In this document: positions 8,008 through 22,019 of the stretch, one piece after another
Position numbering within the stretch: the stretch's first letter is position 1
How the letters are laid out: each line of letters begins with the position of its first letter
Origin: Rhodobacterales bacterium
GTDB taxonomy: Bacteria > Pseudomonadota > Alphaproteobacteria > Rhodobacterales > Rhodobacteraceae
Direction: 5' to 3'
Length of the DNA: 64,000 bases
NCBI GenBank assembly: GCA_038211355.1
Contig: JBBQVR010000001.1
Coordinates: forward strand, 491-64,490
Program-made: the position numbers and the translations under genes
Notes under the pieces: model-generated
The model's input: only the letters and a program-made list of their open reading frames with translations
What the model was told of the DNA's origin: nothing
Databases searched by the model: none

Positions 8008-10074
8008 TCAGTTCCGAGCGACTGTCCGCAATTCCAGTTGCAGGATGATGGGGCTGGGGCCGGTGTCATCGCCTTCCTCCGTCAGCCCAATTGCGCCGCG
8101 CGTGGTCTGGCCGAAACCAGCCTCGGCCAGCGCGTCGCCAAAGGCGGAACCGCCCAGGCTGCGGGTGGTGTCCAGCGCGTCTTGCGCAAGGTAGCCAAGA
8201 TCCTCAACCGGGCTTTGCGGTTTGGCGGGCGTCACGACGACCAGCATCCGTTCCTGCCCAAGGACCGTATCGGTGATCTTGAAGAGGCCCTTTTTCAATT
8301 CATCCCCCGGCTGCAGGCGGCCCGAAAACCAGTGGCTGATCGCATAATCCGCCGCGATGTAAAGGACGTTCACGTCAACCGGCCAGTCCGTGTTGTTGCG
8401 GGCAAGGACATGCACCTCGTCCTCGGGCAGCAGGGTGGGGACCGGTGCGAAGGGCAAGGCGCGTAGCGTGCGGTCTTCGGGCGTGCGGGTCTGCAGCGCA
8501 ACTGACACATCCAGCCCTTCGGACCCCACGGCAGCGCCGAGTTTCAGCAGGTTCTGCGCGCGGGCGATGGTGGTCAAAGTGTCGGCCAGGGTCGTGGCCA
8601 GCGTCGCGCCATCCTTGTCGGTGGCAAGGACGGACGGGGTGGTGCCAAGGTCTTCGGCCAGACCGGTTGCGGGCAAGACCCAGATTGCATCGGGGCGCGG
8701 GCTGTCGGGCAGGACGGCAAGGCGAAGGTCGGCCTCAACGCTTGCGTCAACGAAGATCAGCCGGGGACCTGCGGCTTCGGTCAGCGCCACCAGTGCCGTC
8801 AGCAGCTTGTCGGCGGGCGCGCTTCCCGGGGCGGGCAGGGCCACCGTCAGGGTGAAATCCAGCGCCTCATCCAGCTTGCGCAGGGTCATGCCCTTGGGCA
8901 GGTCGGCGGGAAGGGTCTTGCCGTCGCGCACCACAGGCCGGCCGGTGGCGGCGAAGGTGCCGACCGTGGTCAGTTCCACATATCCCAGCGCGGCATCGGT
9001 CGGATCGGCGGCACTTGCCAAGACGGCCATCACCGCGCCGGTCGCAAGGCCATGCAGCGACCCCGCGGCGATGGTCAGGCCCGCGTCAGTCACGTCAGCC
9101 TGCCACTGGGCGACGCGGGTGCCGGGGCTGGCCCCGAACACCACCTGATCAAGATCGCCCTCAAACAGCGGGGTAGAGCGGGCGAGGTTCCTGACCGAAT
9201 AGCGGCGCAGCACCTCTTGCCCGATCTGGCCATAGGTCGCACCGGGGTATTCGGCCAGCACCTCCATCAGGGTGAAGGTAAAGACGCCCTGCGGCTTGCG
9301 GCCCGGTTTGCCCTTGGGCAGGTTCTTTTCGGGGGTCACCTCGTTCGTCTGCGCGGCGAAGAAGGCGACAAAGCTGCCCTCACCCGCGCCGGCGTCAAAC
9401 GGTGCTTCGACCCCCTCGCGCGGATCACCCAGCGACCGGGTGGTCACAGCCTCCATCGCCATGGGATCAATCCCCAAAGCCTCGGGCGGGATCTGGCGGG
9501 TGCGCACATCTTCATCTGCCCCATCAAGGCTCCGGGTGGCGGTGCCGGAATGGCAGCTGTCGAACACCGCCCAGACATTGGCCCCCTTGGCGCGCAGGCC
9601 GTCGATCAGGGTGCCGATCTCATCATCGACCAGCGCGTTTTCCACCGTGCCCACGCCGTCTGACCAGGTGCCGATATCGACCGGCAGGAACAGCTCATCC
9701 AAGCCATCCAGTTCGGACGTGGGGTCAAGGGCCGGGGCCTGCGTGCCGTGGCCGGAAAAGTGGAGATAGACGAAATCACCGGGCTGGACCCGCGCAGTCA
9801 GATCGGCAAAGGCCGTGCGGATCGCGGCAAGCGTGGGGGCCTGATACCCCGCAACGCCATCGGTCAGGATGGTCAGATTTTCCGCGGCAAAGGGCACCGG
9901 CGCGCTGGTGGTCAGGTAGCCCGCGACCAGCTGCACATCATTGGCGGGGCCTTTCAGCCACCAGCGCTCCTCCAGGTTCTGGTATTGGTTCGCGCCGATC
10001 AGGATGGCGTGGTTTTCCGCCAACGCCGGAAAGGCGGCCGTCATCACGGCGAGGGTGAGGGCGCTGCGCCACAT
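8008..10074 (-). CDS. Secreted caspase-family (peptidase C14, metacaspase/orthocaspase type) protein with C-terminal DUF4384-like domain
   Basis: Signal peptide (FPALA|E); LKGPANDV, HFSGHG (His), FDSCHSG (Cys); C-terminal RNNTDWPVDVNVLYIAAD...GQERMLVVVT resembles DUF4384. Confidence 0.88.
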   Translation of the reverse strand: MWRSALTLAVMTAAFPALAENHAILIGANQYQNLEERWWLKGPANDVQLVAGYLTTSAPVPFAAENLTILTDGVAGYQAPTLAAIRTAFADLTARVQPGDFVYLHFSGHGTQAPALDPTSELDGLDELFLPVDIGTWSDGVGTVENALVDDEIGTLIDGLRAKGANVWAVFDSCHSGTATRSLDGADEDVRTRQIPPEALGIDPMAMEAVTTRSLGDPREGVEAPFDAGAGEGSFVAFFAAQTNEVTPEKNLPKGKPGRKPQGVFTFTLMEVLAEYPGATYGQIGQEVLRRYSVRNLARSTPLFEGDLDQVVFGASPGTRVAQWQADVTDAGLTIAAGSLHGLATGAVMAVLASAADPTDAALGYVELTTVGTFAATGRPVVRDGKTLPADLPKGMTLRKLDEALDFTLTVALPAPGSAPADKLLTALVALTEAAGPRLIFVDASVEADLRLAVLPDSPRPDAIWVLPATGLAEDLGTTPSVLATDKDGATLATTLADTLTTIARAQNLLKLGAAVGSEGLDVSVALQTRTPEDRTLRALPFAPVPTLLPEDEVHVLARNNTDWPVDVNVLYIAADYAISHWFSGRLQPGDELKKGLFKITDTVLGQERMLVVVTPAKPQSPVEDLGYLAQDALDTTRSLGGSAFGDALAEAGFGQTTRGAIGLTEEGDDTGPSPIILQLELRTVARN

Positions 10075-10697
10075 CAGTTTGTCATCAACGCATAGGTGGC
10101 CGCAGCGGGCCCCTTGTTGTCAACTTTCAGCGTGAAGGTCCCGCCAGCCGCCGGGGTCCAGCCGCAATAGGCGATGTGGCTGATGTCGGTATCGGTGCAG
10201 ACCAGACGGCCCTTGTCGTCAAGCACGGTCAGGTTGACGTTGGTGGCGGCCTTCGCCTCGACGTAAACCTCGGCGTATTCACCGCCGCGAAACTCAATCG
10301 GGGGGTAGGTGTCGTTGCCGCCGTTCGCCAGCGCCCCGATGTTGTAGACCGGGCCAGAGGCGACGCCCTTGGTCGTTTCAACTGCGATATCCTCGATCAG
10401 ACCCAGCAGGGTGGCATCGTCTGCGGCAAGCGCCTCGGCGGTGGCAAGCATCTCTTGCCAAGTGAGGGGGGCGCCCTCGGTGGGCTGGCCACCCAAGGGC
10501 AGACGGTCGCCCGCAACCGGGGCCAGCGATTTGCGCAGCCGGGCGGCCGACAGGATCAAAACGGGGTCAGCCGCCGCGACGCCGGTGTCATAAAGCCGCG
10601 CGGAAAGGGCGGCCACTTGCACGGGCGAGGCCGTCTCAGCCCCGGCGCTGGAGGCAAGGGCCAGGGCAAAGCTGGCGGCAAGCAGGGATCGGCGCAT
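10074..10697 (-). CDS. Secreted hypothetical protein, paralog A (helical N-domain plus PPC-like beta-sandwich)
   Basis: Signal peptide (SAGA|E); stop overlaps caspase start (TGATG); aligns by eye with 19121-19942 and 20066-20755. Confidence 0.8.
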   Translation of the reverse strand: MRRSLLAASFALALASSAGAETASPVQVAALSARLYDTGVAAADPVLILSAARLRKSLAPVAGDRLPLGGQPTEGAPLTWQEMLATAEALAADDATLLGLIEDIAVETTKGVASGPVYNIGALANGGNDTYPPIEFRGGEYAEVYVEAKAATNVNLTVLDDKGRLVCTDTDISHIAYCGWTPAAGGTFTLKVDNKGPAAATYALMTN

Positions 10698-10773
10698 CGG
10701 AAAACTCACACAAGGGATTGTCTTGCCGGTGACCATGCGTCCGGGTGCTTCGGCTGTAAATGCTGGAATTTTT

Positions 10774-10792
10774 CATGACGGGCTTTGTCATG
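10774..10792. promoter_or_regulatory. Putative regulator site 1, CATGAC-N7-GTCATG (minus strand TGACAAA-GCCC-GTCA)
   Basis: Inverted repeat in the divergent intergenic region; same motif at 15758 and 20044. Confidence 0.6.
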
Positions 10793-10851
10793 TGCCAAGG
10801 CTTTGGGCCGCTGTTAGCAAGGCGGCAAGCAGGCAGGAACAAAGGTGCACG

Positions 10852-12195
10852 ATGCAGACGGGACAAAAGGAAAGGCGCGGGCAACGGCGCATCTGGCCAC
10901 AGCGATATCTGGGTGAGGTGCTGGCCGCGCTGGTCGTGATCGTGCTGGTGGCGCTGGTCGGGCCGGCCAATGCCACCCCGCTTGATGATGCGATGGACCG
11001 CGTCTTCACGGTGCGCAGTGCCGACGCCGAGGACAGGTTTCTGGGGTCGGCCTTCCTGTGGGGTGCGGGGGACGTTGCCGTGACCAACGCCCATGTGGTC
11101 GGCACCGCAGGCGAGGTGCGTCTGGTGGGCCGCCACGGGGCAGAGGAAACCGCGCTGGTCATCGCGCGCGATGCGCTGCGCGATGTGGCAGTGATCGCGG
11201 TCAGCGCAAGGTTTGCCGGTGGCCGGGCCGGGCTGGACCTTGTGACCACGTCCCCCGGTCTGGGCGATGAGGTCTTTGCCCTTGGCGCACCGCTTGGGGT
11301 GGAATTCACCCTGACCGAGGGCCGGATTTCCGCCACCGCGCGGCAGGTGGACATCACCGTGCCGTTGCTGATGCTGCAGCATGATGCGGCGGTCAATCCG
11401 GGGTCTTCGGGCGGGCCTCTGGTCGATGCTGACGGGCGGCTTTTGGGGATGAACAGCCAGATCGCCGATGGCAGCCGGATGTTTGTCGGCATCGCCTATG
11501 CCATCGCGGCGCCTGACCTTGCGGCCTTCGTCACCGGCCTGATCGAGGAAACCCTGCCGCCGTTCCCGTCGCTTGGCGTGACCGCGCGACCGGTGGACCG
11601 GCAGGTGGCGGCAGCGCTGGGTGTTGCGGTGGCGGGATTGCTGGTCGACGGGGTGACCGCGGGCGGGCTGGCCGAGGCGGCGGGTCTGCGCGGTGGCGAT
11701 GTGATCGTGGCGGTGGACGGGACTGCGCTGGTGCAACCGGGCGATCTGGCCTTTGCGGTGGAACGGGCGGCTGTGGCGGGTGAAACGCTGATCACCGTGT
11801 TGCGGGGCGGGGCGCAGCTGAACCTGACCGTGTCGCTTTTGGCCGAGGAGGCTGGCCTGCGCCTGCGGCAGGTGTCGGGGGGCATGCCGGAAACGGTGCA
11901 GGCCTACCGGCTGGCAGCCCTTGGCGTGGTGCTGGACGCTGCGGGCCGGGTGACGGCGGTCACCGAAAGCTCGCCCGCCCTGTTCGCCGGGCTGGCGCTG
12001 GGTGACCGCATCCTGACGGTGAACGGCGCAGAGGTGGACCTGTCGGCCTATGAGGTGACCGAGCCGGTGTTGCTGCTGGTGCAGGCCCCGGGCGGTTTGA
12101 CGCGGCACATCCATCTGGACCCCTGGCGCGCGCAAGGCGGGGTGCGGCCTCTGGGCGGGGCGAATGTCCTTGACCCGGACGTGGTGGTGTTCTGA
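10852..12195 (+). CDS. HtrA/DegP-like serine protease with PDZ domain(s)
   Basis: VTNAHVV (His), RDVAVI (Asp), DAAVNPGSSGGPL (Ser); PDZ-like GLRGGDVIVAVDG; N-terminal hydrophobic segment. Start uncertain (10852 or GTG 10918). Confidence 0.88.
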   Translation: MQTGQKERRGQRRIWPQRYLGEVLAALVVIVLVALVGPANATPLDDAMDRVFTVRSADAEDRFLGSAFLWGAGDVAVTNAHVVGTAGEVRLVGRHGAEETALVIARDALRDVAVIAVSARFAGGRAGLDLVTTSPGLGDEVFALGAPLGVEFTLTEGRISATARQVDITVPLLMLQHDAAVNPGSSGGPLVDADGRLLGMNSQIADGSRMFVGIAYAIAAPDLAAFVTGLIEETLPPFPSLGVTARPVDRQVAAALGVAVAGLLVDGVTAGGLAEAAGLRGGDVIVAVDGTALVQPGDLAFAVERAAVAGETLITVLRGGAQLNLTVSLLAEEAGLRLRQVSGGMPETVQAYRLAALGVVLDAAGRVTAVTESSPALFAGLALGDRILTVNGAEVDLSAYEVTEPVLLLVQAPGGLTRHIHLDPWRAQGGVRPLGGANVLDPDVVVF

Positions 12196-12221: not shown

Positions 12222-12926
12222 ATGAACGACCGGATCCTGATCGTCGAAGACGATAGTGAGACTGCCGCCGCCGTGCGTGCGGTGGTCGAGGGGTTGGGCT
12301 GCCACGTCGACCATCACGACACGCTTGAGGCCGGCATCGCCGCTGCCATCGCCACGCCCTACAAGGTCATCGTGCTGGACCGGATGCTGCCGGGCGGCGA
12401 CGGGGTCGAGGCGATGGCACGGTTGCGGGCCGGTGGGTCAACCGCGCTGATCCTGATCCTGTCGGCGCTGGGTCGCGCCGCCAACCGGGTGGAGGGGCTG
12501 GAAAAGGGTGCGGATGACTATCTGCCGAAACCCTTTGAACCCGATGAGTTGCGCGCCCGCGTGCGCGCCCTGTTGCGACGCGGCACGATGCAGGTGCTGG
12601 ACAATGACCTTCTGGCCTTCGGTGATCTGGAAATCCGGCTGAAGGCGCGGACGGTGCATGTCAAACGCGCCCATGTGGCGGTCAGCCCGAAAGAGTTTGA
12701 GCTGTTGACCTATTTTGCCAGCAACGCCGGGCAGATCGTCACCCGGATGCAGCTTTTGGAAAACGTCTGGAACCTGCACTTCGACCCCGGCACCAATGTG
12801 GTTGATGTCCATGTCGGCCGCCTGCGCCGCAAGCTGGAAGAAGCAGGCTCCACCGCGATCCAGACCGCGCGGGGGGAGGGGTATGTCTTTGCCCCGCTTG
12901 CCCCGACTTTGGGGCCCGCCGGGTGA
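12222..12926 (+). CDS. OmpR-family response regulator (CusR/CopR-like C-terminus)
   Basis: ILIVEDD, VIVLD (phosphoacceptor), DDYLPKPF; wHTH LLENVWNLHFDPGTNVVDVHVGRLRRKL. Confidence 0.93.
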   Translation: MNDRILIVEDDSETAAAVRAVVEGLGCHVDHHDTLEAGIAAAIATPYKVIVLDRMLPGGDGVEAMARLRAGGSTALILILSALGRAANRVEGLEKGADDYLPKPFEPDELRARVRALLRRGTMQVLDNDLLAFGDLEIRLKARTVHVKRAHVAVSPKEFELLTYFASNAGQIVTRMQLLENVWNLHFDPGTNVVDVHVGRLRRKLEEAGSTAIQTARGEGYVFAPLAPTLGPAG

Positions 12927-14284
12927 CACAGGCCCGCCCCCTGGCGGCGCGGGCCACGTTGCGGCTGGCGGCGGTGATGGCCCTTGCGGTAACGGTTCTG
13001 TCGCTTCTGGCGATGGGGTTGCAATATCGGCTGGTCGAGGTGCGGCTGATGCAAGCGCAGCGCGCGCTTTTGTCAGCCGACCTGGACGGGTTCGCAGCCC
13101 TTTATGACCAGCGCCGGATCATCGCCCTGCGGCAGGCCATCGACTACCGTGCGGCGGCGGCGACGGGCGAAGAGATGCTGCTGTTGCTGGACCGTAGCGG
13201 CGCCAAGCTGGCTGGCACGCGCGCCGGCTGGCCGGCCGGCCTTACCGCCGAGGGGGATGCCTTCACCGTCGAACCCGCAACGGTGTTTGTGGAAGGCGGC
13301 ACACGCTGGCTGGTTGTGGCGCGCAAACTGCCGGGGGGGTTTCCGCTGCTTGTCGCACGATCGCTTGACCCGGTTGATGACACGCTGGCGGCCCTGCGGC
13401 GCGGGATGCTGGGACTGCTCGCCGCGCTGCTGGTGGCGGGGGGTGGGGTCGGCTGGCTGGCGGCGCGGTCGGTCATGGGCCGGATCGGGCGGGTGAATGA
13501 TCTGGCCGACCGCGTGGCCGAAGGGGCGCTGGACGCGCGGCTGCCGGGGGCGCGGTCTGACGATGAGTTCGGCCTGTTGGAAACCCACGTCCACGCCATG
13601 CTGGACCGTATTCAGAACCTGAACCGCGCCACGCACCGCCTGTCCGACACCATCGCGCATGAATTGCGCACACCGCTGAACCGGATGCTGCAAAAGCTGG
13701 GCCGGATCGAGGATCACGAAGAGGTCACGGCCGAGTTGAAGGCCGAGATGCGGCAAGCGATCCGCATGTTTGACAGCCTTCTGGACATCAGCCGCGCCGA
13801 GGCTGACGCAGGCACCGGCGGCGGTCTGGTGCCGGTTGACCTGTCTGCCGTGGCATCGGAAGTGTGGGAGTTGTATGAGCCCTTGGCCGAGGACAAGGGG
13901 CTTGCCTGCACCTCTGACATTGCCCCCGGCCTGCAGATCCTGGGTGACCGCAACCTGATTGCGCAGCTTTTGGCCAACCTTCTGGACAACGCCATCAAGT
14001 ATTGCGCGGCGGGTGACCTGCTTACCCTGACGCTGGTCGTCTTTGGCGACCGGCACCTGATGCGGGTATCGGACACCGGCCCCGGCCTGCCCGCCGAGAT
14101 GCGCGGCGAGGCGTTTGAGCGTTTCGTCCGGGCCGAGCGTGACCGGTCCACCCCCGGCCATGGCCTTGGTCTTGCCCTGGTGCGGGCCATTGCCGCCCGG
14201 CATGGCGCGCGGCTGGTGCTGCCTGACGGTGCTGGCGGATTCACGCTTGAAATCCACTGGCCCAGGCTGCAGCAATCGGACTGA
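12923..14284 (+). CDS. Sensor histidine kinase (2 TM, periplasmic domain, HAMP)
   Basis: H-box IAHELRTPL, N-box LLDNAIKY, G1 VSDTGPG, G2 GHGLGL; GTGA overlap with the regulator. Confidence 0.93.
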   Translation: MTQARPLAARATLRLAAVMALAVTVLSLLAMGLQYRLVEVRLMQAQRALLSADLDGFAALYDQRRIIALRQAIDYRAAAATGEEMLLLLDRSGAKLAGTRAGWPAGLTAEGDAFTVEPATVFVEGGTRWLVVARKLPGGFPLLVARSLDPVDDTLAALRRGMLGLLAALLVAGGGVGWLAARSVMGRIGRVNDLADRVAEGALDARLPGARSDDEFGLLETHVHAMLDRIQNLNRATHRLSDTIAHELRTPLNRMLQKLGRIEDHEEVTAELKAEMRQAIRMFDSLLDISRAEADAGTGGGLVPVDLSAVASEVWELYEPLAEDKGLACTSDIAPGLQILGDRNLIAQLLANLLDNAIKYCAAGDLLTLTLVVFGDRHLMRVSDTGPGLPAEMRGEAFERFVRAERDRSTPGHGLGLALVRAIAARHGARLVLPDGAGGFTLEIHWPRLQQSD

Positions 14285-14305: not shown

Positions 14306-15748
14306 ATGAAACGCGCTGTCCTTCCCCTGCTGTTGCTTCTGGGCTGCGCGCCGTGGAATTCGCCGCTGAACCAGCCGTTGCAGGGGGAAAACGCCAGTCT
14401 GGTTGAACCGGCGGTCGTGGGCGATGGAGAGCTTTACATCGGTCTGGCCTTTTCAGGCGGCGGGTTCCGGGCCACGTCCTTCGCCTACGGTATGCTTGAG
14501 GAATTGCGCGCGGCGGGGGTGGAAACCGGCACGCCGAACGGCCTGCTTGATCAGGTGCGGCTGGTGTCGGGTGTCTCTGGCGGGTCGGTGATGGCGGCGC
14601 AGTTTGGCTTGCGTGGGCCAGAGGGGCTGACCGGGTTCCGGGAGAAGTTCCTTCTGACCGACGGTGAGGCCTATATGGTCACCTCAGGCCTGAACCCCTT
14701 GACCATCGCCAAGGGCGTGGCGGGCGGGGTGAACGGGCGCGATACCTTTGGCCGCTATCTGGATGATACGCTGTTCAACGGCGCCACCTTCGGCGATCTG
14801 CGCAAATCCTCACGCATCAAGACCTGGATCAACGCCACCGACATGGCGAACAACACGCCGTTTCTGTTCAGCCCCGAGACGTTTGATGCGCTGTGTTCCG
14901 ACCTGTCGCAGGTGCGCCTGTCCGAGGCGGTGGCTGCCAGCGCCGCCTTCCCGCTTGTCTTCACCCCCATCGTGCTGAAGGCGCATCAGGGCAAGTGCAA
15001 CTACGTTGAGCCCGACTGGCTGACAGCCGCGCGCTATAACCCCGAGGCGACGGCCGCAATGCGCGCCCATGCCCGCGCGCTGGAAAGCTATACCAACCCA
15101 GATGAGGTGAAGTTCGTCAAACTGCTGGATGGCGGGATCACCGACAACTTCGGCACGACAGGTCTTGCGGTAGAGCGCGCCCGCGCGCAGGTGCCCTATG
15201 CGCCGCTGACGGCGGAAGAGGCGGTCAAGCTGAAACGGATGCTGTTCCTTGTCGCCAACGCCGGGGTTGAGGAAGACTATGACTGGACGCAGCAAGTGGC
15301 CGGTCCCGGTGGGGTCAACCTTGCGATGTCGATTGCCACCAGCGCCATGTCGGCGGCGTCACGGTCTGGCTATGACTCCATGCGGGGTGAACTGCGCGTG
15401 TGGGAGGCAGAGCTGATCGACTGGCGCTGCGCCTTGCCGATGGTTGAAGTGCGCCGGTTGCGCGGATCGACCGAAGGGTGGGACTGCAAGGATGTAAAGC
15501 TGTTCGTGGGTGAGGCCAGCTTTGCCAGCCTGCCCCCGGCGCTGCGCGACAAGCTGAACAATGTGCCGACCCGTCTGAAACTGCCGCCTGCTGAGGTGGA
15601 CATGGTGATTGAAGCCGGGCGATTGGCCACCCGCATGACGCCGGAGTTCAACGGTTTCCTCGCCTCGCTGGCTGGAAATAATGTGGACGGGCGGATCGTG
15701 GACGGCATCGCCGCAGGCGGGCGGCGGGTGATGCCCTTGGGGAATTGA
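14306..15748 (+). CDS. Patatin-like phospholipase, predicted lipoprotein
   Basis: Lipobox LLG|C; SGGGFRA oxyanion loop, GVSGG nucleophile, LLDGG Asp motif. Confidence 0.88.
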   Translation: MKRAVLPLLLLLGCAPWNSPLNQPLQGENASLVEPAVVGDGELYIGLAFSGGGFRATSFAYGMLEELRAAGVETGTPNGLLDQVRLVSGVSGGSVMAAQFGLRGPEGLTGFREKFLLTDGEAYMVTSGLNPLTIAKGVAGGVNGRDTFGRYLDDTLFNGATFGDLRKSSRIKTWINATDMANNTPFLFSPETFDALCSDLSQVRLSEAVAASAAFPLVFTPIVLKAHQGKCNYVEPDWLTAARYNPEATAAMRAHARALESYTNPDEVKFVKLLDGGITDNFGTTGLAVERARAQVPYAPLTAEEAVKLKRMLFLVANAGVEEDYDWTQQVAGPGGVNLAMSIATSAMSAASRSGYDSMRGELRVWEAELIDWRCALPMVEVRRLRGSTEGWDCKDVKLFVGEASFASLPPALRDKLNNVPTRLKLPPAEVDMVIEAGRLATRMTPEFNGFLASLAGNNVDGRIVDGIAAGGRRVMPLGN

Positions 15749-15772: not shown

Positions 15773-15824
15773 GCTGCAGGAAGCCGCTTGTTCCATGCGG
15801 GCCCTTGGCTATCTTGGGCAGGTC

Positions 15825-17801
15825 ATGCGCAAGCCTCTGTCTGCCCTTGCGGGCCTTCTGGCCCTGATGATCGCCCCGCCCGCGCTGGCCGAGGTGCGGG
15901 CAGTGCTGGTCGGAGTCAGCGATTATCTGGTGCTGGATGCCGATCTGAAAGGCCCCGCAAACGACGTGCGCCTGATGGCCGAGACGCTTGCCTTGCGCGG
16001 CGTTGATCCCGGCGCGATGACCGTGCTGACGGCTGATCCTGCAGGCCTGCCACCCGGCGTGAAAACGGCAGCCCCGCTGCGGGCCGCGATCCTTGCGGCG
16101 ATGGCGGCGGTGGCCGATGCGTCAGCCCCCGGCGATACGGTGGTTTTCTACTTCTCCGGCCACGGCGCGCAGGCCCCGGACATGAGCGGCGACGAAGGCG
16201 GTGGCTATGATGAGATATTGCTGCCCGCCGATGCTGCCGGGTGGAGAGGCGCCATCGGCGCGGTGGAAAACGCGATTCTGGATGATGAGCTGCAGGTCTG
16301 GGCGCAAGGGATGCTGTCGCGCGGCGTGCAGGTGGTGGGGCTGATCGACGCCTGCCATTCAGCCACGGGCTTTCGCGCGGCTGGGGGCGCGGGCGTGGCG
16401 CGGGTGATTGATGCGGCGGCGCTGGGCATCCCTGCGGATGTGGTGCCGGTCACGGGCAACCCCGTGCCGCCGCTGACGGGAAGTTTCGTGTTCCTCTACT
16501 CCTCTCAATCCGATCAGCGGTCGTTTGAATACCCGATGGCGGATGGCACCTGGCAGGGAGAATTCACCTTGCGGCTGGCGCAAACCTTGCAGACCGCGCC
16601 GCAGGCCAGCTGGGCGCAGGTGCTTGCCGCCACGACCGAAGGCATGGTGCAAGGCCCCGCGCGGCAGATGCCGGATGGCGAGGGGACATTGTTGCAAGCC
16701 CCGGTTTTCGGGACCGGGCAAGCCGCGCTGCGGGTGCCGGTGGCGGGGGGCAAACTGGCGGCGGGCCTGTTTCAGGGGCTGGCGGCGGGGGCAGAGGTCG
16801 CGGTTTATGCCGATGCTGCGGGGGGGGAGGCGCTGGCTGTCCTTACCCTTGGGACAGTAAGCGCGCGTGAGGCGGTTCTGATCGGCGCACTCCCCGACGC
16901 GGCGCTTTGGGCCGAGGTGGTCAGCGCCCCGCCCCCCGCGCCGCTGGTGCTGGCGGCCCCGGTGCGGGCCGATAGGGCAGACGGGTTTGAGTATGCGGCC
17001 TGGGAAGCGGCCTTGCGTGATGGAGCCGCCACCGGCCCTTCGCCCGACCTTGTGCCGATCCTGACCGGTGGCGCGGTGGCGCTGGCCGGGGCGGACGGGG
17101 TGCTGGACCCTGAGGGGCCGGGATCTACCCCGCGGATCAGGCTGCGCGAGGGCGAGGCAGAGGCGGATGCCGTGGCGCGGGTGCTGGAGGCTGCCGCCCA
17201 TGGCCTTGGCCTGCGCGCGGTCCTTGCGGGGGCGGCGGGGCGGTCGCTGACCGGCAAGGCTGCGCTCTCCATGGTGGTTGAACGCCGGGCGGCCGGGCCG
17301 GACTGTGGCGCGGTGGGCCGGGGCGTGTCGCATGACCCGGCCCAGGGGGTTGCCCCCTGTGACCAGCTTTGGCTGACGCTGACCAACACCGGCGGCAAGG
17401 CGCAGGATGTCAGCGTGCTGTACTTCGCGGCGGATTTCAGCGTGGCCCCGATCTGGCCCGCGCAGAACCTTGCCAACCGCCTGGCACCGGGGGAAAGCAC
17501 CCGCGTCGGCCTGATGATCGAGGCGGACAGCACGGCAGGACTGGAGGAAATCTGGGTTCTGGCCGTTCCGGCAGACCCCGACACCCCCCGCGTGGACCTG
17601 ACGCGCCTTGCCACGCCGGAAACCGCGCGCGACCTTGGGGGCGCAGACCCCATGACGCAGTGGCTGGAAAGCCGCCTGCCCAAGGACGGTGGCACGACGC
17701 GCGGCTTTTCCCTGAAACCCGCCGTGTTGACGATGATCCGTCAGATGGTGCGCCTGACCCCCCCAGAGTTCTTCCCCGCCGATCCCTTGATGGAGAATTG
17801 A
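15825..17801 (+). CDS. Second secreted caspase-family (C14, metacaspase type) protein with C-terminal DUF4384-like domain
   Basis: Signal peptide (PPALA|E); LKGPANDV, YFSGHG, IDACHS; C-terminal TNTGGKAQDVSVLYFAAD...GLEEIWVLAV parallels the first caspase. Confidence 0.88.
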   Translation: MRKPLSALAGLLALMIAPPALAEVRAVLVGVSDYLVLDADLKGPANDVRLMAETLALRGVDPGAMTVLTADPAGLPPGVKTAAPLRAAILAAMAAVADASAPGDTVVFYFSGHGAQAPDMSGDEGGGYDEILLPADAAGWRGAIGAVENAILDDELQVWAQGMLSRGVQVVGLIDACHSATGFRAAGGAGVARVIDAAALGIPADVVPVTGNPVPPLTGSFVFLYSSQSDQRSFEYPMADGTWQGEFTLRLAQTLQTAPQASWAQVLAATTEGMVQGPARQMPDGEGTLLQAPVFGTGQAALRVPVAGGKLAAGLFQGLAAGAEVAVYADAAGGEALAVLTLGTVSAREAVLIGALPDAALWAEVVSAPPPAPLVLAAPVRADRADGFEYAAWEAALRDGAATGPSPDLVPILTGGAVALAGADGVLDPEGPGSTPRIRLREGEAEADAVARVLEAAAHGLGLRAVLAGAAGRSLTGKAALSMVVERRAAGPDCGAVGRGVSHDPAQGVAPCDQLWLTLTNTGGKAQDVSVLYFAADFSVAPIWPAQNLANRLAPGESTRVGLMIEADSTAGLEEIWVLAVPADPDTPRVDLTRLATPETARDLGGADPMTQWLESRLPKDGGTTRGFSLKPAVLTMIRQMVRLTPPEFFPADPLMEN

Positions 17802-17802
17802 G

Positions 17803-18861
17803 ATGACGCTTTCCCATTTGCCCAAGGCCGCGTTTCTTGCGGTGCTGCTCGCCTCAACCGCGCTGGCGGAAGAGGGGCCGGGCTTTGCTGTCAAGGCCGG
17901 CGGGGTGACGGTCTCACCCTTCGCCTACGCAAAGTCCGGGGCCAAGGCGGCGCGGGCGGCCACGGCCGAGGCGGCAGGCGCAAAGGTCATCGGCGGCGAG
18001 GTTGCGGCCGAGGGGGCCTGGCCCTGGCAGGTGGCACTGCTGGTCGGCGGGGCAGAGGTCAGCTCTGACAGCCAGTTCTGTGGCGGGTCGCTGGTCATGG
18101 ACCGCTGGGTGCTTACGGCGGCGCATTGCATCCATATGGACCAGGGGGATGGCAGCTTTGCCGATCTGGCACCGCAGGACCTGTCGATCCTGGTTGGAAC
18201 GAACGCGCTGGTGCCGGGCAGGGGGGATCTGATCCCGGTCGCGGCGATCTTTCGCCACCCGTCCTACGATGGCGCCAAGTTCGACTTTGACCTAGCGCTG
18301 GTGCAACTGGCGCGCGCGCCGAATGTGCCCTACGCGCTGATCGAGGTGCCGGACGCCGAGTTTGGCGGTCTTTTGAACCAGCAGGGGGTGACGACGATCG
18401 TCACTGGCTGGGGTCTGCAGGAAGGGGCGACCCCGTCAACCGAATTGCGGCAGGCCGAGATTCAGGTGCTGGACCGTGACCTCTGCAACGCCTCGATGCT
18501 GGAGGCGCGGGCGGAAGATGCGGCCGGCGGGTTTTCCTATGCGGCGCAGACGCTGGGCCTTGGCGAGGACGATGCCTTTGCGCTGTGGGATCAGATGGTG
18601 GCGCGCGCGCCGATGCCGGTCAGCGAGAACATGATCTGTTCCGGCACATTCGAGGGCGGCAAGACCAGCTGCAACGGCGACAGCGGCGGGCCTTTGGTGG
18701 TTCCCCTGGACGACGGCAGCTACATTCAGGCCGGGATCGTCAGCTGGGGGCTGAGCGCAAGTTCGGGTCAGGGCTGCGAGGAGACGGCGCTGTTTTCCGC
18801 CTATACCGACATTTCGAAGTTCGTGCCCTGGCTGAACGAGGTGATCGCGGCGAACCCCTGA
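17803..18861 (+). CDS. Secreted chymotrypsin-family (S1A) serine protease zymogen
   Basis: Signal peptide (TALA|E), propeptide ending AK|VIGG, WPWQVAL, CGGSL, TAAHC, DLALVQL, GDSGGP. Confidence 0.92.
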   Translation: MTLSHLPKAAFLAVLLASTALAEEGPGFAVKAGGVTVSPFAYAKSGAKAARAATAEAAGAKVIGGEVAAEGAWPWQVALLVGGAEVSSDSQFCGGSLVMDRWVLTAAHCIHMDQGDGSFADLAPQDLSILVGTNALVPGRGDLIPVAAIFRHPSYDGAKFDFDLALVQLARAPNVPYALIEVPDAEFGGLLNQQGVTTIVTGWGLQEGATPSTELRQAEIQVLDRDLCNASMLEARAEDAAGGFSYAAQTLGLGEDDAFALWDQMVARAPMPVSENMICSGTFEGGKTSCNGDSGGPLVVPLDDGSYIQAGIVSWGLSASSGQGCEETALFSAYTDISKFVPWLNEVIAANP

Positions 18862-19120: not shown

Positions 19121-19942
19121 TTAGTTCGTCATCAGGTGGTAGCTGTTGCGCACGCTGCCCATGTTCTGGACAGTGACGTAGAAATAGCCATCCCAAGCGG
19201 GGGTAAAGTCGCAGTAAAGCGAGTCTGACCAGCTGACATCATAGCAAAAGACGTTGCCGTTTTCATCGGTGATCGCCACGTCAAGATCGGTGTCGCCGTC
19301 GCCCACCACCGCAATTTCGCCGTAGGAATTGCCGTAGAACGGGATTTCCCAGACATCGGTCTGGCCCGCGGGCAGGCGGGACAGCCACTGCACCGCGCCG
19401 CCGATCCGCCCGCGGGAGCCTTCGGCCATCGCATCCTCGATCAGGCCAAGGATCGCCTCATCTCCGGCGGCAAGCTCGGTCGCCTTGGCGAACATCGCTT
19501 CTGCGGTCACGGGGGCGTCGGCGGCGCCTTCCTCTTCTGATGTGGCGGTAAAAAAGCTGGCCTTGGCGGCAGGGCGCATCCCGTCAGCCATCATCGGGGC
19601 CGGAGCGGCAGGGGCTGCGGAAGGGGCAACCTTTTTGCGCAAGGATTCCTGATCCCCCTCGGCGAAGGCGATGGTGGCAGGGTCGAGTGCCGCAGCCTCA
19701 GCCGTGGTGACGCTGACCGAAGCCGCGAGTTTGGCCGCGGCCAGCACGGTCAGCGCATCGCCTTGCGCAAGGCCCACGTCATAGAGGTCCTGGGCCAGGC
19801 CCATGGTCGTGGCACCCCCGGCAGCGGTGGCGGTGGCCGCGGGGTCGATGTTGGTGCCCGATTTGTCTTGTGCAAAGGCGGGAATGGCCAGCGCGACCAG
19901 TGTGGTCGTGGCCAGCGCGCGCGAAAGGGATTTCAGCGTCAT
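19121..19942 (-). CDS. Secreted hypothetical protein, paralog B (helical N-domain plus PPC-like beta-sandwich)
   Basis: Signal peptide (PAFA|Q); GDGDTDLDVAITDENGNVFC...YCDFTP...YHLMTN. Confidence 0.8.
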   Translation of the reverse strand: MTLKSLSRALATTTLVALAIPAFAQDKSGTNIDPAATATAAGGATTMGLAQDLYDVGLAQGDALTVLAAAKLAASVSVTTAEAAALDPATIAFAEGDQESLRKKVAPSAAPAAPAPMMADGMRPAAKASFFTATSEEEGAADAPVTAEAMFAKATELAAGDEAILGLIEDAMAEGSRGRIGGAVQWLSRLPAGQTDVWEIPFYGNSYGEIAVVGDGDTDLDVAITDENGNVFCYDVSWSDSLYCDFTPAWDGYFYVTVQNMGSVRNSYHLMTN

Positions 19943-20065: not shown

Positions 20066-20755
20066 CTAGTTGCCGATCAGGCGGTAGCTGTTTTGCAGGC
20101 TGCCGGGGTTGTGGATGGTGGCGGTGAAAAAGTCGTTGCGGGCCGGGGTCAGCCGGCACAGGGCCGGATCAACCGACGGCGGCGTGGCGCAGACGATGTT
20201 GCCCGCCGCATCTTGCAGGGTCAGGGACAAGGGGGTGTCGCCATCGCCGATCACGCCGATCTCGGCTGTGACCTCACCAAAGAGGGGGAGGCGCCATGTA
20301 TCGGTCTGGCCGGGGCCAAGGTCGGCCTTCGCCTCGGTCGCGGTTTCGGTGGGTCCGCGCGGCAACTGTGCGTCAAGGTCATAGGCCAGGTCCTGCAAGG
20401 CGGGATCGTCGCCGACCAGGTTGCGGACGATGGCCAAGGCTGCCTCGCTGGCCGGGTCGGGGGCGGCGGTGCGGCCGGTGGGGGCGTCAGGGACCGCATC
20501 ACCGCTGGTCGTGCGCGCCCAGGCCGGGGCGGGGCGCAGGGTGACGCCGCGCGCCAGGCGAATGGCCACCAGCATGGGCAGCACCTCGCCCGAAGTCAGG
20601 GCCTGTTGCCAGGTGCGCTGCGCCAGGATCAGGCGTTGGGCCGTGCCGGGCGTGCCACCGGGGGTGGCGGACAGGTTTGCCGCCTCAGCCAGCGCGGCGG
20701 GGGCGGCAAGAAGCGTCACAAGAAGGGCGGCACCAATGGCTGGGGAGCGGATCAT
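20066..20755 (-). CDS. Secreted hypothetical protein, paralog C (helical N-domain plus PPC-like beta-sandwich)
   Basis: Signal peptide from ATG 20755 (AALA|E); GDGDTPLSLTLQDAAGNIVC...LCRLTP...YRLIGN. Confidence 0.78.
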   Translation of the reverse strand: MIRSPAIGAALLVTLLAAPAALAEAANLSATPGGTPGTAQRLILAQRTWQQALTSGEVLPMLVAIRLARGVTLRPAPAWARTTSGDAVPDAPTGRTAAPDPASEAALAIVRNLVGDDPALQDLAYDLDAQLPRGPTETATEAKADLGPGQTDTWRLPLFGEVTAEIGVIGDGDTPLSLTLQDAAGNIVCATPPSVDPALCRLTPARNDFFTATIHNPGSLQNSYRLIGN

Positions 20756-20870
20756 TTTCGGGCTTTCCGGGGCTGCGGCGAACTGTGGCAAAGCCAGGTG
20801 CAAGGGACAAGTGCGGAAACCTTTCCGTACCCGGCATTTCCGGCTAGCAGAAGGGAAACGGAGGTGATGC

Positions 20871-22019
20871 ATGCGCGACATTCTGGACCGGCTTTTGGCC
20901 TTCGACACGGTCAGCTTCAAGCCAAACATGGGGCTGATGCTTTATGTGAAGGACTTGCTGGAGGGGGCAGGCATTGCCGTGACCCTGATCCCGGATGCCG
21001 GGGGCGGGAAGGCGAACCTCTTTGCCACCGTGGGGCCACAGGGGCAGGGTGGGGTCATGCTCTCAGGCCATACCGATGTGGTGCCGGTAGAGGGGCAGAC
21101 CTGGACCAAGCCCCCCTTCGCGATGACCGAGGCTGACGGCCGCATCTACGGGCGGGGGGCGGCAGACATGAAGGGCTTCGTTGCCTGTGCGGTGGCGGCG
21201 ATGCTTGACGCCGCAAACCGGCCGTTGCGCGTGCCGCTGCATCTGGCGCTGTCTTATGACGAAGAGATTGGCTGCATGGGGGTGCGCAGTCTGATCGACA
21301 TGCTGGATGCGGCCCCGGTGCGGCCAAGGATGTGCATCGTGGGGGAACCCACGGGGATGCAGGTCGCGACCGGCCACAAGGGCAAGGTCGCGCTGCGGGC
21401 AACCTGCGTGGGGCGTGAGGGGCATTCGGCGCTGGCCCCGCTGGCCTTGAATGCGCTGCATCTGGCGGGGGATTTTCTGGTGGCGGTCAGGGGTTTGCAG
21501 GCTGAGGTGGCGGCGACGGGCCTGCGCGATGGTGACTATGACGTGCCCTATACCACGCTGCATGTCGGCAAGATGTCGGGCGGGGTGCAGGTCAATATCG
21601 TGCCCAACCACGCGAGCCTGGACTTTGAGATCCGGTCGCTGGCGGATGAGGATGTGGCGGGCCTGATCACCCGGCTGGAGGCGGCGGCGGAAGGGATCGT
21701 GGCACCACTTCGGGCAGAGTTTCCAGAGGCCGCGATCAGGGTGGAGCGCTTGTGGAATTACCCCGGCCTTGGCACGCCATCGGATGCGGGGGTGGTCAAC
21801 TTCGTCAAGGGGCTGACGGGGGCGAACGGGACGATCAAGGTGGCTTTCGGGACGGAAGGGGGCCTCTTTGACCAGCGGCTTGGCATTCCGACGGTGATCT
21901 GCGGGCCGGGGTCAATGGCGCAGGGGCACAAGCCGGATGAGTTCGTGACCGTGGAGCAGCTGGAGCGGTGCGAGGCGATGCTGGGCGCATTGATCCAGCG
22001 GCTGGAGGCGGGGTTTTAG
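20871..22019 (+). CDS. argE: Acetylornithine deacetylase (M20)
   Basis: LSGHTDVVP, YGRGAADMKG, SYDEEIGC, IVGEPT, AHKPDEF-like terminal motif. Confidence 0.85.
   Translation: MRDILDRLLAFDTVSFKPNMGLMLYVKDLLEGAGIAVTLIPDAGGGKANLFATVGPQGQGGVMLSGHTDVVPVEGQTWTKPPFAMTEADGRIYGRGAADMKGFVACAVAAMLDAANRPLRVPLHLALSYDEEIGCMGVRSLIDMLDAAPVRPRMCIVGEPTGMQVATGHKGKVALRATCVGREGHSALAPLALNALHLAGDFLVAVRGLQAEVAATGLRDGDYDVPYTTLHVGKMSGGVQVNIVPNHASLDFEIRSLADEDVAGLITRLEAAAEGIVAPLRAEFPEAAIRVERLWNYPGLGTPSDAGVVNFVKGLTGANGTIKVAFGTEGGLFDQRLGIPTVICGPGSMAQGHKPDEFVTVEQLERCEAMLGALIQRLEAGF

Follow-up and report, generated by a model that had tools for sequence, protein, structure and literature searches.

Introduction

Zymogen cascades as such are already known in bacteria. 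In the staphylococcal cascade, which runs from aureolysin through SspA to SspB, proteases that differ in catalytic class switch on one secreted zymogen after another, a single operon encodes the downstream partners, and the serine-protease zymogen uses a trypsinogen-like N-terminal mechanism that needs a heterologous protease (PMC3454333). Here, we analyzed a 64,000-nucleotide stretch of the genome of a Rhodobacterales bacterium (GCA_038211355.1, contig JBBQVR010000001.1, positions 491 to 64,490; hereafter the window), in which the gene of an S1A serine-protease precursor directly follows casp2, the gene of a metacaspase-like peptidase of family C14. This caspase-to-S1A locus points to an undescribed two-step protease cascade, of which the C14-initiated S1A version is the new part. 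The staphylococcal cascade has an M4 metalloprotease as initiator and an S1B glutamyl endopeptidase, and it belongs to a Gram-positive pathogen, whereas the cascade proposed here, which was deduced from the genes, has a C14 metacaspase-like initiator and an S1A enzyme in which V-I-G-G canonically follows a basic P1, and belongs to environmental Alphaproteobacteria.

While the staphylococcal cascade appears to be the closest system in logic, the closest in mechanism would be the activation of chymotrypsinogen by trypsin. There too, an S1A zymogen with a non-basic pocket relies on another enzyme for a cut behind a basic residue, which yields an I/V-x-G-G N-terminus and its contact with Asp194. 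The insertion of this N-terminus and its pairing with Asp194 are the standard mechanism of chymotrypsinogen activation. In the vertebrate S1A cascades the activator is itself an S1A enzyme with Asp189, whereas the genome of the window has no Asp189 S1A and the candidate activator belongs to clan CD. Moreover, the window S1A has a 50-residue hairpin between C168 and C182 (chymotrypsin numbering) without counterpart in solved S1A structures.

The product of casp2 shares with type-I metacaspases and orthocaspases (Yca1, 4F6O; TbMCA2, 4AF8; MaOC1) the p20 core, the His/Cys dyad and the two acidic S1 residues, but, unlike them, it carries a putative signal peptide, and its C-terminal half is large and rich in beta structure. 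Homologues of caspases are common among bacteria, and in the literature searched no natural substrate was assigned to any of them and no physiological substrate of a bacterial metacaspase or orthocaspase was found. The S1A zymogen is a candidate for such a natural substrate.

When the open literature was searched for a C14-to-S1A cascade in bacteria, only a mention of fusion proteins (PMC6426788) came up. These alphaproteobacterial fusions of trypsin, a Gln-Cys pseudo-orthocaspase and DUF4384 were previously described (Klemencic et al. 2019, PMC6426788), and they likewise associate S1A and C14 domains functionally in Alphaproteobacteria. In five Rhizobium loci (L102, L103, L106, L109, and L116; for example L103:2313-9598 of Rhizobium leguminosarum JHI2451), the gene order was a DUF4384-TPR-OmpA protein, an intact caspase with DUF4384, an 837-aa fusion, and a serpin. 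The fusion joins an Asp189 S1A domain with an R/V-I-G-G site and a normal 19-residue loop to a dead caspase domain (Gln for His) and DUF4384, whereas in the window the S1A and the caspase are separate genes and both are intact. With its adjacent active caspase and serpin, the Rhizobium locus looks like a second, independently built S1A/C14 module with its own inhibitor. By analogy, this parallel supports a functional relationship of the S1A and C14 folds; since the S1A of the fusion keeps Asp189, the relationship does not require the loss of this residue.

Another prokaryotic protease cascade with caspase-fold enzymes is the Type III CRISPR system in which SAVED-CHAT acts on PCaspase. It is cytoplasmic, is triggered by cyclic oligoadenylate, leads from one clan-CD enzyme to another and serves anti-phage defence (bioRxiv 10.1101/2023.06.23.546230). 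In contrast, the proteins of the present locus are all predicted to be exported, and they matched no specific PADLOC system.

Results

The S1A Zymogen and Its Activation Site

The S1A gene (17803..18861, plus strand, as are all its features below) is an intact open reading frame for a pre-pro-enzyme of 352 aa. Residues 62-344 matched the Pfam family Trypsin (PF00089) with an E value of 6.6e-44 and 150.8 bits (cut-off 20.6), and zero NCBIfam families matched the protein. Its nearest solved relatives were matriptase-2, tryptases, matriptase, and MASP/thrombin, with about 25-30% identity. The N-terminus reads as a putative Sec-type signal peptide (residues 1-22, 17803..17868), which combines a basic n-region with a hydrophobic core and has its predicted cut behind A-L-A; in the structure model, helix 8-20 of this segment had low pLDDT, the per-residue confidence score. 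We inferred that the protein is exported via the Sec route.

According to the alignments, the propeptide comprises the 39 residues 23-61 (17869..17985) and ends with A-A-G-A-K61. The motif S-P-F-x-F-A..G-x-K-A was kept within the window's clade, and small residues occupy P4-P2. The predicted scissile bond lies between K61 (codon 17983-17985) and V62 (codon 17986-17988), so that the new N-terminus would be V-I-G-G. The catalytic residues His57 (H108, 18124..18126), Asp102 (D163, 18289..18291), and Ser195 (S294, 18682..18684; preceded by Asp194, D293) stand in invariant columns, and this triad and the oxyanion-hole motif G-D-S-G-G-P (G292-P297) were invariant in alignments of 43 and 14 homologues. 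The same alignments showed C93, C109, C228, C279, C290, and C325 to be invariant, which are predicted to form the canonical pairs 42-58, 168-182, and 191-220.

The S1 positions were numbered from alignments to matriptase-2, tryptase, and 100 other S1A sequences. The bottom of the pocket is Thr189 (T288, 18664..18666), next to Ser at position 190; Gly216 (G316, 18748..18750) precedes a 217-220 loop that exceeds the trypsin loop by about 6 residues, and position 226 is Ser (S332, 18796..18798). An original prediction, made from the sequence of this gene, had placed the end of the propeptide at AAGAK/VIGG with the Val codon at 17986, and Thr and Ser at positions 189 and 226; each of these assignments was recovered here. 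The triplet Asp189-Gly216-Gly226 gives trypsin-like specificity, and Thr189-Gly216-Gly226, as in granzyme H, gives chymotrypsin-like specificity (PMC6096847). The window S1A, with Thr189-Gly216-Ser226, departs from the trypsin-like triplet and resembles granzyme H at the first two positions, but it has Ser at 226 and the longer 217-220 loop. Based on granzyme H as the nearest characterized triplet, the pocket should be of the chymotrypsin or elastase type, preferring a hydrophobic P1 residue and not accepting Lys or Arg. The combination of Ser226 and the longer loop may narrow it.

The Upstream Caspase and the Gene Junction

The proposed activator casp2 (15795..17801, plus strand) is a putatively exported metacaspase-like C14 peptidase of 668 aa, which matched Pfam Peptidase_C14 (PF00656) with an E value of 4.7e-19 and 69.4 bits (cut-off 21.4). 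Its signal-peptide-like N-terminus ends with ALA|EV. The key residues are the S1 residues Asp57 and Asp185, the dyad His123 and Cys187, and an invariant Arg194 before a disordered linker. The best PDB matches were the type-I metacaspases Yca1 and TbMCA2, with the ND, GHG, and DxCHS motifs aligned and with D57 and D185 corresponding to Asp95 and Asp211 of TbMCA2. Moreover, the D-H-D-C signature of D57, H123, D185, and C187 was intact in 64/64 upstream caspases. In enzymes of this C14B type, cleavage is usually Ca2+-dependent. The strict preference for Arg/Lys that metacaspases and orthocaspases show stems from two acidic S1 residues (PMC4357240, PMC6426788), and casp2 is therefore expected to cut behind Arg or Lys.

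The AlphaFold2 model of casp2 had a pLDDT of 78.2, with a p20-type core above 90 and beta-rich C-terminal domains after the linker. Two segments were disordered, namely 195-222 (window 16377-16460) and 609-643 (window 17619-17723). In an alignment of 25 caspases, Arg194 was invariant, and R612 and R636 were nearly invariant. The disordered segments at these three arginines are candidate sites of self-processing. A pattern R/x-x-G-G recurs in the linkers of the caspase and at the S1A site, but its reading as a recognition code was dropped, because it was not robust in this alignment and because the S1A fold itself constrains V-I-G-G.

The junction of the two genes is tight. The casp2 stop codon TGA (17799-17801) and the S1A start codon ATG (17803) are separated by one spacer base, in agreement with the original prediction, and the GGAG Shine-Dalgarno sequence read for the S1A gene (17792..17795, plus strand) lies inside the 3' end of casp2, 7 nt before the start. 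The two genes are probably translationally coupled and, judging from this arrangement, co-transcribed. The estimated spacing from caspase stop to S1A start ranged from -167 to +81 nt over 50 loci, with a median of 27, and in 15/50 the genes overlapped or were at most 4 nt apart.

Conservation of the Caspase-S1A Pair

The family Paracoccaceae, of which the source organism is a Tabrizicola/Rhodobacter-like member, was sampled with one genome per genus (301 genomes). An S1A homologue was present in 24 of these, and all 20 neighbourhoods fetched had a caspase directly upstream on the same strand, including those of S1A proteins with only 31-37% identity. Overall, the pair was kept over S1A identities from 31% to 78%. 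A pattern scan of the genome collection gave 80 further named loci, and after the removal of duplicates and one fragment, 66 loci with a long C168-C182 loop remained. As a comparison, 32 ordinary bacterial S1A loci were analyzed identically. Many of the loci come from metagenome-assembled genomes, and related genomes are non-independent observations. The S1A features described above were conserved over the 66 non-redundant orthologous or paralogous loci and are thus not due to chance.

The P1 residue of the activation site was basic in all 66 long-loop loci (R in 41, K in 25), switching freely between the two, while the ordinary loci had 22 basic and 10 non-basic residues. At position 189, the long-loop loci had T (46), D (9), G (8), S (2), or A (1), compared with D (30), E (1), or G (1) in the ordinary loci. 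Residue 226 was S in 46, G in 15, and A in 5 of the long-loop loci. Among the 57 loci without Asp189, a caspase was adjacent in 49, within 711 nt in 3, elsewhere in the locus in 1, and absent in 4; the corresponding numbers for the 9 Asp189 loci were 2, 0, 2, and 5. The 49 adjacent caspases of the former group were all intact, directly upstream, and on the same strand. These results indicate that an S1A precursor behind a putatively exported Arg/Lys-type caspase relative occurs in dozens of alphaproteobacteria. Among the carriers are the cultured, non-pathogenic strains Tabrizicola thermarum YIM 73036, Pseudorhodobacter wandonensis KCTC 23672, and Shimia aestuarii DSM 15283 (loci L051, L066, and L067).

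Of the four non-Asp189 loci without a caspase, L068 has too little upstream sequence, L075 has its caspase 5.6 kb off, and no caspase lies within 6 kb of the S1A in L087 or L126. Five genomes with a long-loop S1A but no adjacent caspase carried 2-11 C14 copies each, and those of L087, L126, and L075 hold 6-11 C14 genes elsewhere. Since every one of these genomes carries C14 genes elsewhere, this test of the exceptions does not discriminate. An exhaustive search of metagenome representatives was dominated by multi-domain polyproteases with summed scores; about 10 single-domain members were readable, a number that does not stand for the family size, and they agreed with the locus counts. Two further representatives, P0138 (632 aa) and P0255 (622 aa), have two tandem long-loop S1A domains each, of which one seems degenerate around the active site.

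Order of Evolutionary Events

The maximum-likelihood tree showed three well-supported long-loop clades. Clade A (Hyphomicrobiales) mostly has Asp189 and is without a caspase neighbour. Clade B is caspase-linked, with Asp189 in L085, its earliest branch, and in L098, and with Thr, Ala, or Gly in the others. Clade C (46 rows, including the window) is caspase-linked and never has Asp189. A basic P1 residue was retained across all three. On this tree, the long-loop hairpin predates the caspase linkage, and Asp189 was replaced at least two times on a caspase-linked background, independently in clades B and C, and once without a linked caspase (L087 with L126). Since L085 and L098 still have Asp189, this order fits a relaxation of self-activation once a dedicated activator was present, and the most economical reading would be that the zymogen could do without self-activation after it had an Arg/Lys-specific activator of its own. 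The pattern reflects few events among related sequences, so its statistical weight is smaller than the raw counts imply.

Strong casp2 orthologues co-occurred with the S1A in 15/18 genomes. Two of the three exceptions were truncations at contig ends, and in one of these (G027) the N-terminus of the S1A was visible directly after the caspase; the third exception, G157, is real. The casp1-type genes, which are related to a second caspase gene of the window, occurred in several genomes without any S1A, and the casp2-type genes almost never did. In G256, a genome of the same genus which is 99% complete, neither the S1A nor a casp2-like gene was found, indicating that the pair and its surrounding gene island are accessory within the genus.

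In clade-B loci (L086:1836-7822, L045:5243-14554, and others), further neighbours of the pair are conserved, namely a divergent DUF900 alpha/beta-hydrolase of about 580 aa, a CHAT-TPR protein of 1,100-1,270 aa, and a rhodanese-domain gene immediately behind the S1A. The lipase-type hydrolase beside this pair echoes a patatin gene of the window.

Structure Models and the 170-Loop Hairpin

The AlphaFold2 model of the S1A, built from 43 homologues, had a mean pLDDT of 85.9. Residues 59-62 were the sole internal segment below 50, and, as expected, the model suggests an exposed activation loop around the scissile bond. The propeptide block 41-50 was modelled confidently (pLDDT 90), and the region of the 217-220 loop (residues 311-330) had lower values of 64-69. 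A Foldseek search against the PDB returned tryptase, matriptase, and thrombin with E values of about 1e-22 and target-normalized TM-scores of 0.82-0.87, consistent with the double beta-barrel fold.

The loop between C168 (C228) and C182 (C279; both within 18485..18639) has 50 residues in the window, as the original prediction had counted, compared to 49-54 in the 66 long-loop loci and 13-23 in the 32 ordinary bacterial S1A. In the model, helices 225-250 and 255-268 form a hairpin (18475-18606) with pLDDT of about 92-97, which prolongs the short intermediate helix after C168. Foldseek hit solely ordinary catalytic domains, about 240 residues in size, and the hairpin is thus absent from all solved S1A. 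From its position in the fold, the hairpin is inferred to border the S3/S4 side of the cleft.

The insertion had been described as acidic and helical and as a possible docking exosite for the caspase. The modelling bore out its helical nature. Its acidity held for the S1A of the window, with a net charge of about -6, and for the average of clade C (-4.2, range -8 to 0), but it did not extend to the entire family: the mean was +2.8 in sub-clade C2, -1.9 in clade B, and -1.5 in clade A, and individual charges reached 0 or +2 within clades A, B, and C. Between clades B and C, the hairpin was only 11-16% identical, compared to 36-41% for the core, while its length was rigidly kept. It is also present in clade A, which lacks the caspase neighbour. 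With neither sequence nor charge conserved, an acidic exosite for caspase docking was rejected.

Other Genes of the Island and the Genome

In the window's clade, the casp2/S1A pair belongs to an island of putatively exported hydrolases under two-component regulation, including an HtrA-like protease, a patatin, and a second caspase. The latter, casp1 (8008..10074, minus strand), is a paralogous, putatively exported C14 peptidase of 688 aa and an alternative activator; it has the architecture of casp2, is 32% identical to its full length, and is situated 6 kb upstream. The gene of a small secreted protein, paralog A (10074..10736, minus strand), has its stop overlapping the casp1 start by 1 nt, an arrangement that mirrors the tight casp2/S1A junction. 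According to Pfam, there follow on the plus strand an HtrA/DegP-like protease with PDZ domains (10723-12195), an OmpR-type response regulator (12222-12926), a HAMP histidine kinase (12923-14284), and a lipoprotein patatin (14306-15748). Two further secreted proteins, paralog B (19121-19942) and paralog C (20066-20929), are encoded on the minus strand and converge on the S1A gene. Their C-terminal domain was weakly PPC-like, with a match of paralog B to PF04151 (E 0.056) that stayed below threshold. About 12 clade-C loci shared the whole order, with casp1 and the small paralogue on the strand opposite to the HtrA-like protease, response regulator, histidine kinase, patatin, casp2, and S1A, followed by small paralogues.

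The genome of the window (92.8% complete) has a single S1A and two HtrA-type proteases, and no matches to omptin or C11 clostripain were found in it. It carries four C14 genes, namely casp1, casp2, and one each on contigs 115 and 163. The gene on contig 115 (L129:1375-3699) encodes a protein that has a signal- or anchor-like N-terminus, keeps the His/Cys dyad intact along with the two S1 Asp residues, and ends in a long TPR-rich stretch; its product or that of contig 163 could likewise cut after Arg or Lys in the envelope. A PADLOC search identified no specific anti-phage system: the S1A was without a match, and the caspases, patatin, and HtrA-like protease matched generic domain models only. 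All island proteins examined in this way carry putative export signals.

Discussion

The best reading of this locus, which we consider somewhat more probable than its negation, is that casp2 activates the S1A zymogen. From the anatomy and residue identities of the zymogen, the conservation and synteny of the pair, and the structure models, we propose that casp2 and pro-S1A would both be exported to the periplasm or outside the cell, where casp2 would cut the K61/V62 bond. The freed V-I-G-G N-terminus would then insert and pair with Asp194, which would order the oxyanion hole and the S1 pocket, and the mature S1A would cleave after hydrophobic residues, completing a two-step C14-to-S1A cascade. 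Activation should depend on a different Arg/Lys-specific protease, because the enzyme's own Thr189-Gly216-Ser226 pocket should refuse Lys and Arg, and the retention of a basic P1 residue in enzymes unable to cut there suggests selection by an external activator of this specificity. The choice of casp2 follows from its adjacency and coupling, not from exclusivity. Two earlier suggestions gained support in this way: that the pocket is unfit for the protein's own activation site, from the lack of Asp189/Gly226 together with a basic P1 in 66/66 loci, and that the upstream caspase is a competent candidate, from its intact metacaspase-type C14 domain with both S1 Asp residues and the conservation of the pair.

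The two enzymes could instead be co-secreted proteases with complementary P1 preferences, basic and hydrophobic, which act on shared targets, while the zymogen is activated by casp1, by the TPR-linked C14 of contig 115, or by an enzyme of the environment or host. At least three of the four C14 genes indeed have export-like N-termini, intact dyads, and S1 Asp residues, L087 and L126 lack an adjacent caspase, G157 keeps casp2 without an S1A, and Asp189 members are also caspase-linked. But the tight coupling of the genes, with 1 nt in the window, and the adjacency in 49/57 non-Asp189 members across clades with about 31-37% S1A identity exceed the needs of co-regulation, and several genomes have casp1-type paralogs but no S1A, which is almost never seen for the casp2-type genes; we therefore regard another activator as unlikely. 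Self-activation would demand that the Thr189/Ser226 pocket, together with the long 217-220 loop and Glu221/221A, tolerates Lys or Arg enough for a slow autoactivation, or that maturation is non-canonical. The unusual 217-225 region was modelled with lower confidence, the Glu after C220 is conserved in clade C, and the Asp189 relatives of clade A presumably activate themselves. In trypsin, though, mutation of D189 reduces cleavage after Arg and Lys by orders of magnitude; none of the 57 members has an acidic residue at position 189, which is T, G, S, or A, and clade B has His in place of Glu221A. Self-activation is accordingly very improbable.

It is also conceivable that the two proteins form a physical complex, or that the direction is reversed and the S1A acts on the caspase as a processing or regulating enzyme, for instance at the disordered linkers of casp2. 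The Rhizobium fusion of an S1A with a pseudo-caspase suggests that the folds interact, and the casp2 segments 195-222 and 609-643 could be processed. Against this, the conserved linker residues are arginines, which fit self-processing by the caspase and not cleavage by an S1A with hydrophobic P1 preference; type-I metacaspases need no processing (PMC4357240), and the invariant basic P1 of the zymogen would be left unexplained. These arrangements appear quite improbable.

Several observations nevertheless weigh against activation of the S1A by casp2. L085 and L098, which have Asp189, and the Rhizobium fusions are caspase-linked as well, so the loss of self-activation is not the reason for the linkage. 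L087 and L126 have no caspase nearby, and that of L075 is distant. Three further C14 genes exist in the genome, of which casp1 and that of contig 115, at the least, have the look of exported, K/R-specific enzymes. For a Thr189/Ser226 pocket with a lengthened 217-220 loop, the specificity is a prediction. Furthermore, in G157 (L133:1669-12500, contig 22) the island is complete up to casp2 and the S1A is absent; behind casp2 come unrelated genes, for a membrane protein of 200 aa and a protein of 927 aa, and a clade-B caspase-S1A pair lies on another contig. This indicates that casp2 has other roles.

A broader proposal is that an exported metacaspase-like enzyme is the committed activator in a dedicated alphaproteobacterial extracytoplasmic cascade, in which the paired zymogen repeatedly lost its trypsin-like pocket; to this we give slightly less than even confidence. 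If activation by casp2 were refuted, what is left would be a secreted chymotrypsin-like protease of the ordinary kind whose loop is unusual. If it were confirmed, cross-class zymogen cascades with a clan-CD initiator would exist in the bacterial envelope, the S1A enzymes would make up a new subfamily recognizable by the rigid helical hairpin of 50 residues in their 170-loop, and the family would be an evolutionary example of a protease yielding self-activation after gaining a dedicated activator. The locus offers a concrete enzyme-substrate pair with one bond, K61/V62, and a basic P1 residue in every member examined. If the proposal is true, a bacterial metacaspase would for the first time have a physiological substrate and a downstream effector assigned to it. 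In bacteria, the cascade would then match the hierarchical zymogen cascades of animals, and it would be connected to a two-component sensor and to lipase-type effectors, the patatin in clade C and the DUF900 hydrolase in clade B.

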